Source: a virus
Taxonomy: Duplodnaviria; Heunggongvirae; Uroviricota; Caudoviricetes
Direction: 5' to 3' (one strand)
Virus record (IMG/VR): IMGVR_UViG_2548876959_000011
DNA length: 51,013 nt
Below are positions 8,860 through 46,306 of the stretch, piece after piece. A program made the position numbers and the translations under genes. Each line of letters starts with the position of its first letter. Position 1 is the stretch's first letter. The notes under the pieces were generated by a model. It did no database searches and had not been told where the DNA came from. It saw nothing but the letters and a program-made list of their open reading frames with translations.

Positions 8860-9450
<591 letters not shown>

Positions 9451-10989: not shown

Positions 10990-11006
10990 AATGCTCTAAT
11001 AAATTT
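10990..11006 (+). promoter_or_regulatory. C1 operator-like site upstream of immI (Op51-like)
   Basis: AATGCTCTAATAAATTT, 16/17 match to ATTGCTCTAATAAATTT. Confidence 0.7.
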
Positions 11007-11189
11007 GTATTTTTAAGTCACGAATGCTATCTTTTCGCATCATATTGACCTTTTAATCGTTCAGGCTTATAGTTCCGCCGTCGTAGCAAATTCTGCGACC
11101 GGGTTTAGCAGCCTGAATGATTGTGCGGACAGCCGCAGATATCCGATATTGCGGTATTTTTGTGTCCGTAAAACCGCGTTACGCCCAAA

Positions 11190-11285
11190 TTATGGTGGGG
11201 CGTGATGGGGAGGCTTCGGCCTGCTGGTTTCACAATCGCCAGTCTGCTAACCCCGTCACGTCCTGCCACCTGTTTAGCAGCGGGT
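11190..11285 (+). ncRNA. c4: c4-like antisense repressor RNA region (approximate bounds)
   Basis: Structured leader upstream of icd/ant; tcacaatc (11232-11239) is complementary to gattgtga just upstream of the icd start; UUCG-looped hairpin and 7-bp stem ctgctaa/ttagcag. Confidence 0.35.
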
Positions 11286-12659: not shown

Positions 12660-12676
12660 TTTGCTCTAATAAATTT
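12660..12676 (+). promoter_or_regulatory. C1 operator-like site upstream of kilA (Op53-like)
   Basis: TTTGCTCTAATAAATTT, 16/17 match to consensus. Confidence 0.7.
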
Positions 12677-43367: not shown

Positions 43368-44065
43368 AGATTGCTTTAGTTTTTCGCTCTGGTGGTGACT
43401 ATAACGCTTCCGATGTGCAGTGGCTGGTTAATCAACTGCCAAAAGGCTATGAAATTATTTGCCTGACAGACCTGAAGCGTTTACATGTACCTGGCGTCAA
43501 AGTTGTCCCATTGATCAACCAGTGGCAAAAGTGCCGTGGCTGGTGGGCGAAAATCGAGTTGTTCCGACCGGATATAACCGATGATCTGTTCTATCTGGAT
43601 TTGGACACGGTTATTGCCGGTGATATACGCCCAATCCTAGAGCATCCACCAACCAGCTTCACCATGCTTAGGGATTTTTACCATCCACAATATCGTGGCA
43701 GCGGTGCCCTGTGGATACCAAATAGTGTTAAAGCGCATATCTGGAGTTCATTCTGGCAAGATCCGGAAGGTTGGATTTCTCGTTGTGTCACTACTGAGTG
43801 CTGGGGTGACCAGGGGTTCTTACGAAAGGTTATGGGCGATGATACACCAGCATTTCAGGATCTGTATCCAGGATGGTTTGTAAGTTACAAGGCCGATGTT
43901 GTGGAACCTGGTTCAAAATATGCGAGCGCGCGTTACTCCAGGGGGAATGGGGCATTACCAAAAGACTGCCGAATAATCTTTTTCCACGGCAAACCGCGAC
44001 CTCGCGAAGTGTCAGAGGATTGGCTTCCCCTTATCAGCTCGTTTTTTGAGCGAGAATCAGAATAA
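43364..44065 (+). CDS. GT-A-like glycosyltransferase candidate (DXD motif)
   Basis: 233-aa ORF; [13 protein letters not shown] resembles GT-A DXD region. Confidence 0.4.
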
Positions 44066-44066
44066 T

Positions 44067-44083
44067 ATTGCTCTAATAATTCC
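44067..44083 (+). promoter_or_regulatory. C1 operator-like half of a palindromic operator pair
   Basis: ATTGCTCTAATAATTCC, 14/17 match. Confidence 0.5.
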
Positions 44084-44115
44084 ATATTTTTAAAACGTGA
44101 TGTACACTCATCACG

Positions 44116-44132
44116 TTTTTTATTAGAGCAAT
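44116..44132 (-). promoter_or_regulatory. C1 operator-like half of a palindromic operator pair (inverted)
   Basis: TTTTTTATTAGAGCAAT; reverse complement 14/17 match. Confidence 0.5.
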
Positions 44133-44146
44133 CTACAAGGTGCACT

Positions 44147-45629: not shown

Positions 45630-45701
45630 TAGTTACAGTGTCACTTTTAATGCTGGTGGAGTGCGCCCACCAGCATTTTTTTCGTCCAATGAGGAGGGCA
45701 T

Positions 45702-46208
45702 TTGAGTATTTTCAATAAACACGCACACCAGGAACGTCCGTATATCGTCATAGTCGATATTGATGGAACAATATCAGAGGCAACTGAAGACAGACTGCAT
45801 TTGCTTCCGCCACCAGGTAAAGGTGCATTAACAAAGGACTGGAACGAGTTTAATCTCGCCTGTGACACCGATACACCCATCACTCCAGTTATTGATATGG
45901 TGCGCCAGTTATTTAACGTTTACACGGTCTGGTTTGTAACTGGGCGCTGTGAGATCGCAAGGGATAAAACACGAGCCTGGCTGCGGAAGTACGTAACAAA
46001 CGGGGCTGAGCCTTTGCTATCTATGCGTCCTGCCACCGATGACAGAAATGACGGCCCAGCAAAGATTGATCTCCTTAAGAAAATTGGTCTAAGTAAAATC
46101 GCGTTCGCGCTGGAAGATAAGATTGAAGTGGCGCGTATTTTCAGGAGTCACGGCGTACTTACATTCATGGTCAGGGAGTATGAAAATGCGCTTCTTCATC
46201 AACAATAA
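45702..46208 (+). CDS. pap: HAD-superfamily phosphatase (P1 Pap-like)
   Basis: 168-aa ORF; DxDGT motif VIVDIDGTIS. Confidence 0.7.
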   Translation: MSIFNKHAHQERPYIVIVDIDGTISEATEDRLHLLPPPGKGALTKDWNEFNLACDTDTPITPVIDMVRQLFNVYTVWFVTGRCEIARDKTRAWLRKYVTNGAEPLLSMRPATDDRNDGPAKIDLLKKIGLSKIAFALEDKIEVARIFRSHGVLTFMVREYENALLHQQ

Positions 46209-46224
46209 TTGCTCTAATAAATCT
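46208..46224 (+). promoter_or_regulatory. C1 operator-like site overlapping the pap stop codon
   Basis: ATTGCTCTAATAAATCT, 16/17 match. Confidence 0.65.
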
Positions 46225-46306
46225 TGATTTTTAAGACAGGGGAAGTGAAAATAAAAACATGCCGCAAGGCGCGGCATGTATCCAATCAATCACAGGAGCT
46301 GAAAAT

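Follow-up and report, generated by a model that had tools for sequence, protein, structure and literature searches.

The DNA at positions 44067-44132 raises the question what purpose is served by two facing operator-like sequences that bracket a hairpin, when the element lies between two phage genes read in the same direction. The window, i.e. the whole stretch of 51,013 nucleotides that was analysed and to which all coordinates refer, represents a P1/P7-type phage-plasmid: the 2.4 kb around the composite are 99.1% identical to phage P7 and 98.3% to phage P1, and a 601-bp stretch has a 100% match in the E. coli plasmid NZ_CP060916.1 and is present in 687 plasmid records. The composite occupies the 81-nt gap between pmgQ (hdmD in P7; 43364-44065, plus strand), the last gene of the pmgL-pmgQ operon, and pmgR (shtA in P7; 44147-44365, plus strand, 72 aa), the first gene of a C1-controlled operon, as located by the open reading frame list and by P1/P7 annotation mapped onto the window. 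pmgS (shtB in P7; 44367-45629, plus strand, 420 aa) is the second gene of this pmgR-pmgS operon, and a Shine-Dalgarno-like AAGG (44137-44140, plus strand), read off the sequence, lies 6 nt 5' of the pmgR ATG. According to the P1 annotation all genes from pmgL through pmgV are on the plus strand and none converges on the composite. Still further 5', pmgL and pmgN are preceded in the P1 record by the late promoter LPpmgL and by early promoters under C1 control (Op82, Op83). The c1 gene lies outside the window (in P1 at 93.2-94.1 kb).

The 66 bp read ATTGCTCTAATAA-TTCCATATTTTT-AAAACGTGATG-TACACT-CATCACGTTTT-TTATTAGAGCAAT, and a repeat search resolves them into two nested inverted repeats: an outer one with arms of 13 nt (44067-44079 and 44120-44132, 100% complementary, 40 nt apart) and an inner one with arms of 11 nt (44092-44102 and 44109-44119, 100%) around a loop of 6 nt. 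A preliminary description of this DNA had regarded the whole as a 66-bp palindrome with two inverted 17-mers at its ends. The 17-mers are correctly placed, but they are complementary over 13 nt only and not over 17, and the term palindrome does not fit a structure in which 12 bases at the left (44080-44091) stay unpaired between outer and inner arms and none at the right. The window contains 13 perfect inverted repeats with arms of 11 nt or longer within 60 nt, whereas 40 first-order Markov simulations gave 0.6 on average and never more than 3; such repeats are about 20-fold rarer in simulated sequence. For arms of at least 13 nt the simulated mean is 0.075. An 81-nt RNA spanning the composite folds with -26.9 kcal/mol (z = -8.1); for the inner hairpin by itself the value is -13.4 kcal/mol (z = -5.5). 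The outer 13-bp arms also pair in silico, yet we do not count them as RNA structure, because protein binding explains the conservation of the arms and because termination would precede the transcription of the right-hand operator. At this locus no Rfam family exceeds its gathering threshold, and a generic scan called neither a promoter nor a terminator. The terminator was likely missed because the stem had been extended through A/U pairs, which leaves too few T's in the tail.

The two outer sites are, as judged from their sequence, C1-type operators, and in this respect the preliminary description was right to call them operator-like. Op86a, also named OpmgRa (44067-44083, plus strand, ATTGCTCTAATAATTCC), and Op86b, or OpmgRb (44116-44132, minus strand, ATTGCTCTAATAAAAAA), each match the asymmetric 17-bp C1 consensus ATTGCTCTAATAAATTT, which is represented by 22 operators per P1 genome (PMC8546580), at 14 of 17 positions and with a perfect 13-nt core; the window contains nine matches of that quality where 0.33 are expected. 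Exactly these positions are annotated in GenBank as binding sites (feature type protein_bind, 'phage repressor C1') in both P1 (AF234172) and P7 (AF503408). The P1 record describes OpmgRa, the former Op86a, as a 'monovalent C1-controlled operator' that controls the expression of pmgR and pmgS, and in the P7 record the pair is named Op(sht a) and Op(sht b). The operators, together with the pmgR-pmgS operon assigned to their control, have stood in these records since the early 2000s. The two sites face each other with their centres 49 bp apart, and consequently do not form a bivalent operator of the Op72ab or Op99ab type, in which the 17-mers overlap as a palindrome of about 28 bp. Promoter elements of a lytic-cycle gene lie within or next to them: the -35 of the annotated promoter PpmgR falls within Op86a, and an alternative promoter candidate lies between the sites. 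All three mismatches of Op86b to the consensus are confined to its A-run, because the same DNA is, on the opposite strand, the U-run of the hairpin. No C1 footprint or EMSA data on Op86, and nothing relevant on a pmgQ terminator, on RNA 3' ends or on P1 start sites, were found in the full-text literature searched, a body that does not include the 2004 P1 genome paper.

Conservation across P1-like genomes had been proposed as a check, and the composite passes it. In a first scan, which required both operator cores with a gap of 25-55 nt, at least 120 viral contigs and two genomes were recovered, all of them at this locus; no second instance of the operator pair was seen elsewhere in these genome-wide scans, and in P1-like elements it is restricted to this site. 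A second and independent scan was anchored solely on the flanking coding sequences, with no conditioning on operators, and found both 12-mer operator cores intact in 93 of 96 P1-clade loci, where variation concentrates directly 3' of Op86b and in the hairpin stem. More diverged relatives were gathered through homologues of PmgR and PmgS, the deeper ones through PmgS because PmgR homologues reach only about 72% identity. They comprise Cronobacter phage JK004 and the Salmonella plasmid pCVMN1543, with flanks of about 70% DNA identity, further contigs from Salmonella, Cronobacter and metagenomes, and two contigs (L148 and L150) with a PmgS of 53% identity. All of these relatives retain the succession of operator, hairpin and inverted operator at the homologous position, as do P1 and P7, although the operator cores of the D6/JK004-like and the more distant relatives carry C-to-T or G-to-A variants.

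The length of the composite is equally constant. Across the at least 120 loci, 28 of the 31 distinct variants measure exactly 66 bp, including those from relatives with about 70% flank identity; two others reach 67 bp through a homopolymer slip, and the third has a 1-nt insertion in Op86b and stems from a contig with fragmented neighbouring ORFs. The spacer between Op86b and the ATG, in contrast, is anywhere between 10 and 16 nt long among these sequences. Even at 53% PmgS identity the 40-nt gap between the operator cores is kept, and in these two contigs the hairpin is displaced by 1 nt while the operator spacing is unchanged.

The hairpin (44092-44119, plus strand) consists of the 11-bp stem AAAACGTGATG/CATCACGTTTT and the 6-nt loop TACACT, and we propose it as the terminator stem-loop for transcripts arriving from the pmgQ side. 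In an alignment of 28 variant sequences, standard pairs occupy 96.4% of the stem cells, compared to 37-72% when the partners are slid against each other. Pairs 29/50, 31/48 and 34/45 have changed on both sides (e.g. from G-C to A-U or from A-U to G-C), and in 500 shuffles neither the paired fraction nor the covariation score was ever as high as observed; in one relative (L134) the hairpin is kept in a different register. The cells that deviate from Watson-Crick pairing are unevenly distributed between the strands, with 27 G·U on the plus strand against four A·C, which correspond to G·U on the minus strand. Counted as distinct column/background events, by hand from the variant lists, about 10-12 plus-strand G·U stand against three A·C (one-sided binomial p of about 0.02-0.05, with kinship ignored). 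The three A·C cases are singletons within the P1 clade, whereas several of the G·U pairs are fixed across whole clades. Accordingly, the plus-strand folding energy of the diverged relatives remains between -13 and -17.7 kcal/mol, while that of the minus strand falls to -5.8 kcal/mol. This pattern argues that the hairpin is maintained as an RNA structure of the plus strand, and the covariation of the stem together with the plus-strand G·U bias speaks against three alternatives: a bidirectional terminator, a cruciform in the DNA and a further palindromic protein site.

The features next to the stem point in the same direction. The U-tract TTTTTTATT (44116-44124, plus strand) belongs at once to the last four stem pairs, to the terminator tail and to the inner end of Op86b; on the plus strand UUUUUUAUU follows directly 3' of the last G-C pair, and columns T51-T55 are invariant in the 28 variants. 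Of the first eight positions of the tail, seven are T in the window as well as in both closer clades (P1 and D6/JK004-type), compared to four of eight in L148. The full 11-bp stem has -12.9 kcal/mol in the window and its 7-bp core -8.5 kcal/mol, a modest core with four G-C pairs, and the hairpin begins 27 nt after the pmgQ stop codon. A stable stem-loop, a U-rich tract 3' of it, and a co-directional gene upstream combined with strand-specific maintenance are thus all present; the preliminary notion of a terminator-like hairpin is strengthened by the evolutionary maintenance of stem and U-run. Hairpin and U-run together are probably a one-directional intrinsic terminator of the upstream pmgL-pmgQ operon. 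The P1 and P7 records annotate no terminator here, but four inspected stretches of the P1 record hold no terminator features at all, so that this absence says little; a later paper counts Rho-independent terminators among the features mapped in P1 (PMC8201110). L148 and L150 retain the stem (-15.2 kcal/mol) and the loop hexamer, but their U-run has degenerated to UCUUGAUU, and in these contigs the hairpin may terminate only weakly or have a different function.

What the preliminary description lacked is the promoter inside the composite. The P1 GenBank record predicts PpmgR, a sigma-70 promoter, at 44068-44096 (plus strand), with a -35 TTGCTC (44068-44073), a 17-nt spacer and a -10 TAAAAC (44091-44096). 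An alternative candidate at 44080-44108 (plus strand) has a -35-like TTCCAT (44080-44085), likewise a 17-nt spacer, and the hairpin loop TACACT (44103-44108) as its -10. In a rough scan with hand-entered position-weight matrices both are weak in the window, with scores of 3.1 for the annotated promoter and 5.8 for the alternative. The annotated -10 has no final T and reads TGAAGC, TGAGGC or TAAAGG in relatives. The loop hexamer occurs as TACACT, TACGCT, TATCAT or TATTAT but always as TAnnnT, i.e. with T37, A38 and T42 invariant in the 28 variants, and these three positions are the best-conserved ones of the sigma-70 -10 element. In 10 of 11 lineages the highest-scoring promoter uses the loop as its -10; the JK004/D6-like clade has TTTACT-16-TATCAT or TATTAT with scores of 6.9-7.8, and L148 and L150 have TTGATT-16-TATTAT at the same position. 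These comparisons make the loop hexamer, unlike the element in the annotated PpmgR, most likely the -10 of pmgR. Transcription would then start near G44115; relative to this start, Op86a would span about -48 to -32 and Op86b about +2 to +18. From the annotated PpmgR it would start near 44103. Since under either promoter the start would fall within the hairpin, the RNA of the pmgR operon would lack the 5' arm and could not form the terminator. An Lpa-dependent late promoter was also considered. The -22 boxes of such promoters are 9 bp long, of the type TGTGACTTT, AGTTACTTT or TAGTCATTT, and usually lie 4 nt (9 nt in LPhot) before the -10; this reading was dropped because the annotated boxes have no counterpart in the TTAAAACGTGATG upstream of the loop hexamer.

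Published expression data change their character exactly at the composite. In RNA-seq of P1vir in a wild-type host (PMC8201110, Table S1), transcript levels, which are given as log fold change versus time 0 and without length normalisation, rise between 10 and 30 min by +4.0 log2 for pmgL and pmgM, +4.2 for pmgN, +4.4 for pmgO, +4.3 for pmgP, +4.5 for ppp and +4.6 for pmgQ, as opposed to +1.8 for pmgR and +1.7 for pmgS; beyond them pap increases by +2.8 and pmgT by +1.9. A dksA host shows the identical break between pmgQ and pmgR, and at 10 min pmgR (9.0) and pmgS (10.0) already exceed pmgQ (7.05) (PMC8201110), which places both genes in the early class during infection by P1vir. The earlier suggestion that the composite separates two operons finds its confirmation here. 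The switch of kinetic class shows that pmgR and pmgS have an early promoter of their own and agrees with limited read-through, but fold changes relative to time 0 without length normalisation give no termination efficiency, and by our own arithmetic read-through could account for up to about 70% of the pmgS RNA at 30 min. Genetic data touch on the same boundary: pmgR is essential, and its deletion leads to unjoined heads and tails (PMC9024508), and CRISPRi roadblocks in pmgM and in pmgO-pmgQ give a non-essential score (PMC10695390). This pattern weakly fits a promoter of pmgR's own, the weakness being due to the essential score of pmgN and to the fact that the screen missed pmgR itself.

Taken together, the composite is probably the control region of pmgR-pmgS, in which two C1 operators, a promoter and the terminator of the upstream operon overlap within the 81-nt gap. 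In the lysogen, C1 bound to Op86a and Op86b would occlude RNA polymerase at the promoter between them, and upon inactivation of C1 the pmgR promoter would fire early. Polymerases arriving from the pmgQ side, whether from LPpmgL or from the early promoters of pmgL and pmgN, would reach the hairpin and its U-run and mostly stop, the strong late transcription from LPpmgL being halted there especially, and pmgR-pmgS would thereby follow their own expression schedule. Transcripts from the pmgR promoter would begin inside the hairpin and escape termination. The U-tract would play a double role, as terminator tail and as inner end of Op86b, and the pmgR-pmgS unit would be closed by a second, canonical intrinsic terminator at 45649-45684 (plus strand; AATGCTGGTGG-7 nt-CCACCAGCATT, a stem-loop at 45649-45677 followed by T7; -17.6 kcal/mol). 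Inferred in this model are the occupancy by C1, the termination itself and the place where transcription starts.

Several other readings have to be weighed against this one. The preliminary description suggested a bidirectional terminator clamped by the repressor, or else a site of DNA looping; C1 would make contacts across the hairpin and transcription would be stopped both ways. In the window an A-run does precede the stem and a T-run follow it, but the minus-strand tail is UUUUAAAAAU (UUUU and then A's) here and CUUCAAAAAA or CCUCAUAAAA, with no U-run, in relatives; the G·U variants fit the plus strand only, minus-strand folding is lost in relatives, and with all neighbouring genes on the plus strand there is no convergent gene whose transcripts could be terminated, so that we rejected bidirectional termination. 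A clamp or loop would account for the constant distance of the 13-nt cores, 40 nt in 28 of the 31 variants, and the invariant 49-bp spacing of the centres, kept where the hairpin has moved by 1 nt, is a suggestive hint in this direction; C1-mediated looping has been reported for the c1 operators. The fixed length can, on the other hand, be explained by stacked constraints, namely the -35/-10 spacing, the stem, the loop and the shared U-tract, and 49 bp correspond to about 4.7 helical turns, with no obvious in-phase spacing. As a whole we regard this reading as unlikely. It would also be conceivable, though rather unlikely in our view, that the composite is a fixed-geometry insulator switch, in which two C1 monomers 49 bp apart cooperate (together with Lxc) across the hairpin, shutting the promoter and strengthening pausing or termination of arriving polymerases at the U-tract; the strict 66 bp would then reflect protein-protein geometry and not stacked constraints.

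The remaining alternatives concern the hairpin itself. Selection as plus-strand RNA is expected of any plus-strand transcript that contains the hairpin, including a pmgR leader that starts upstream of 44092 and uses it as attenuator or 5' stabiliser, and P1 ref, to judge by the title of Windle et al. 1988, combines promoter-operator control with an attenuator. Yet no lineage offers a well-scoring promoter with a start 5' of the hairpin, the GenBank -10 (44091-44096) already overlaps the 5' arm, and an essential gene would need to overcome its own perfect terminator while no antiterminator pairing is evident; a leader function is therefore decidedly unlikely. We give similarly little credence to the idea that the hairpin is a barrier to 3'-exonucleases or a site of RNase processing, through which the pmgQ and pmgR messages would acquire independent stabilities. 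It would agree with the persistence of stem and loop where the U-run has decayed (L148 and L150), and the RNA-seq data are compatible with substantial read-through, but the invariant five to six U's that adjoin the hairpin in the window and the two closer clades, so shortly after the pmgQ stop, form the textbook layout of a terminator. That the inner palindrome acts as DNA, either as the site of another dimeric protein or as a promoter-modulating cruciform, might be supposed from its perfect 11-bp symmetry centred on a -10-like hexamer; it is nevertheless very improbable, because the stem sequence varies (CGTGATG, CATGGTG, CGTGGTG, GGCATG, GTGTGGTG) with complementarity kept, and the departures are strand-asymmetric G·T pairs, whereas a protein site would fix the sequence and a cruciform needs both strands.

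The preferred reading, a control region with overlapping operators, promoter and terminator, can be compared with known systems. OpmgRa, OpmgRb and PpmgR of P1, and Op(sht a) and Op(sht b) of P7, are the same element, with equal positions, strands and sequences; the P1 record differs from our reading in that it places the -10 at TAAAAC and not in the loop, and annotates no terminator. The bivalent operator Op72ab (Obanab) of the P1 ban operon, at 30384-30411 of the window, is likewise made of two converging C1 17-mers, with a -35 TTGCTC inside the left operator and the promoter under both sites. In Op72ab the sites overlap by 6 bp with centres 11 bp apart, in contrast to the 49 bp of Op86a/b, which enclose a hairpin and its U-run and carry separate annotations as monovalent operators. 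Canonical Rho-independent terminators, such as the one after pmgS, share the stem-loop followed by a U-run just past a stop codon on the coding strand; the hairpin of the composite has a weaker, A/U-extended core, its U-run lies within a repressor site, and its loop holds a -10 candidate, so that the same DNA would end one transcription unit and start the next. A single hairpin at the junction of two co-directional transcription units is also found in the frd-ampC region of E. coli, where the downstream promoter lies 5' of the hairpin, which therefore attenuates the downstream gene. In the composite the start is placed inside the hairpin, and the downstream transcript would escape.

The composite is real and neatly built, but ordinary. 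Beyond the GenBank records our analysis makes modest additions: the conserved 66-bp geometry, a conserved hairpin that is probably a terminator for the plus strand only, a loop that probably contains the -10, and a U-tract that is at the same time part of Op86b. The value as a discovery is small, and the result is a sharper map of one junction between P1 transcription units, which aids the reading of P1 RNA-seq and of CRISPRi polarity around the essential pmgR. For phage engineering, the locus would offer a compact natural module that terminates and then restarts transcription under repressor control.

A side observation concerns a much more distant contig (L152), whose PmgS is 27% identical. 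Two perfect inverted 14-mers AGATACTAATTTAT, 17 nt apart, lie there 5' of a pmgR-sized gene; enclosed by them is the -10-like GATATT, which TTTACA precedes at a distance of 17 nt, and the hairpin is absent. If these 14-mers are the repressor operators of that phage, this one contig would suggest that the inverted pair bracketing a -10 is the older arrangement and that the hairpin is an addition of the P1/D6 lineages.

The operator-hairpin-operator composite that occupies the gap between pmgQ and pmgR (44067-44132) keeps its 66-bp layout in two diverged relatives, at 1699-1764 of contig L148 and at the homologous position of L150, at a PmgS identity of 53%. In both relatives the hairpin position has moved by 1 nt, the T-tract that follows it is degraded to TCTTGATT, the core of the counterpart of Op86b (one of the two inverted C1 operators at the ends of the composite) carries an A-to-C change, and a better promoter, TTGATT-16-TATTAT, is present. 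At a PmgS identity of 27%, contig L152 possesses two perfect inverted 14-mers (AGATACTAATTTAT; 1705-1749), separated by 17 nt, which bracket a -10-like GATATT 5' of a pmgR-sized gene; the hairpin is absent from the region of this pair. The 14-mers may represent an operator pair for another repressor specificity. In L130 (GCA_045575315.1 contig, about 1120-1190), Op86b has an internal 1-nt insertion (TTATTAGAAACAAT), and the pmgQ and pmgS reading frames beside the composite are fragmented. Two readings of this copy are a prophage in decay and an assembly of low quality. The 70-aa minus-strand ORF with a GTG start (43933-44145), which covers the entire composite and the end of pmgQ, is probably spurious.

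Directly 3' of pmgS lies a canonical intrinsic terminator (45649-45684; AATGCTGGTGG-7 nt-CCACCAGCATT followed by T7) with a folding energy of -17.6 kcal/mol; the P1 record (GenBank AF234172) carries no annotation for it. With this terminator in place, pap (45702-46208), for which no promoter of its own is annotated, is flanked by two terminator/operator junctions. On the 3' side of Op88 (OpmgT; 46208-46224, ATTGCTCTAATAAATCT), the pmgT leader contains a G+C-rich hairpin (46259-46279; CATGCCGC-aagg-GCGGCATG) that lacks a U-run.

The counterpart of the ban operon's bivalent operator, Op72ab (Obanab), lies at 30384-30411; it is likewise an inverted pair of C1 17-mers, and shares the converging orientation of Op86a/b; however, its 17-mers overlap, with centres 11 bp apart. 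Three tRNA genes (31067, 31145 and 32848) are found downstream of it. The immI region (11067-11273) comprises the C4 antisense RNA (RF01695; 11188-11273) and the a1/b1 sites that this RNA targets (RF03163; 11067-11119), with C1 operator matches nearby at 10990-11006 and 12660-12676. An Rfam match to the sok antitoxin RNA (RF01794; 14730-14904, 114 bits) suggests that this P1/P7-like element carries a toxin-antitoxin module of the hok/sok type.

Ten more perfect inverted repeats, each with arms 11 nt or longer that lie within 60 nt, occur in the window, at 9433, 12592, 12971, 20625 (13-nt arms, 3-nt loop), 24782, 29920, 31650 (14-nt arms separated by 54 nt, close to the tRNA genes), 32519, 35593 and 37060; the repeat at 35593 (AGAAAAGCCCG) is terminator-like.
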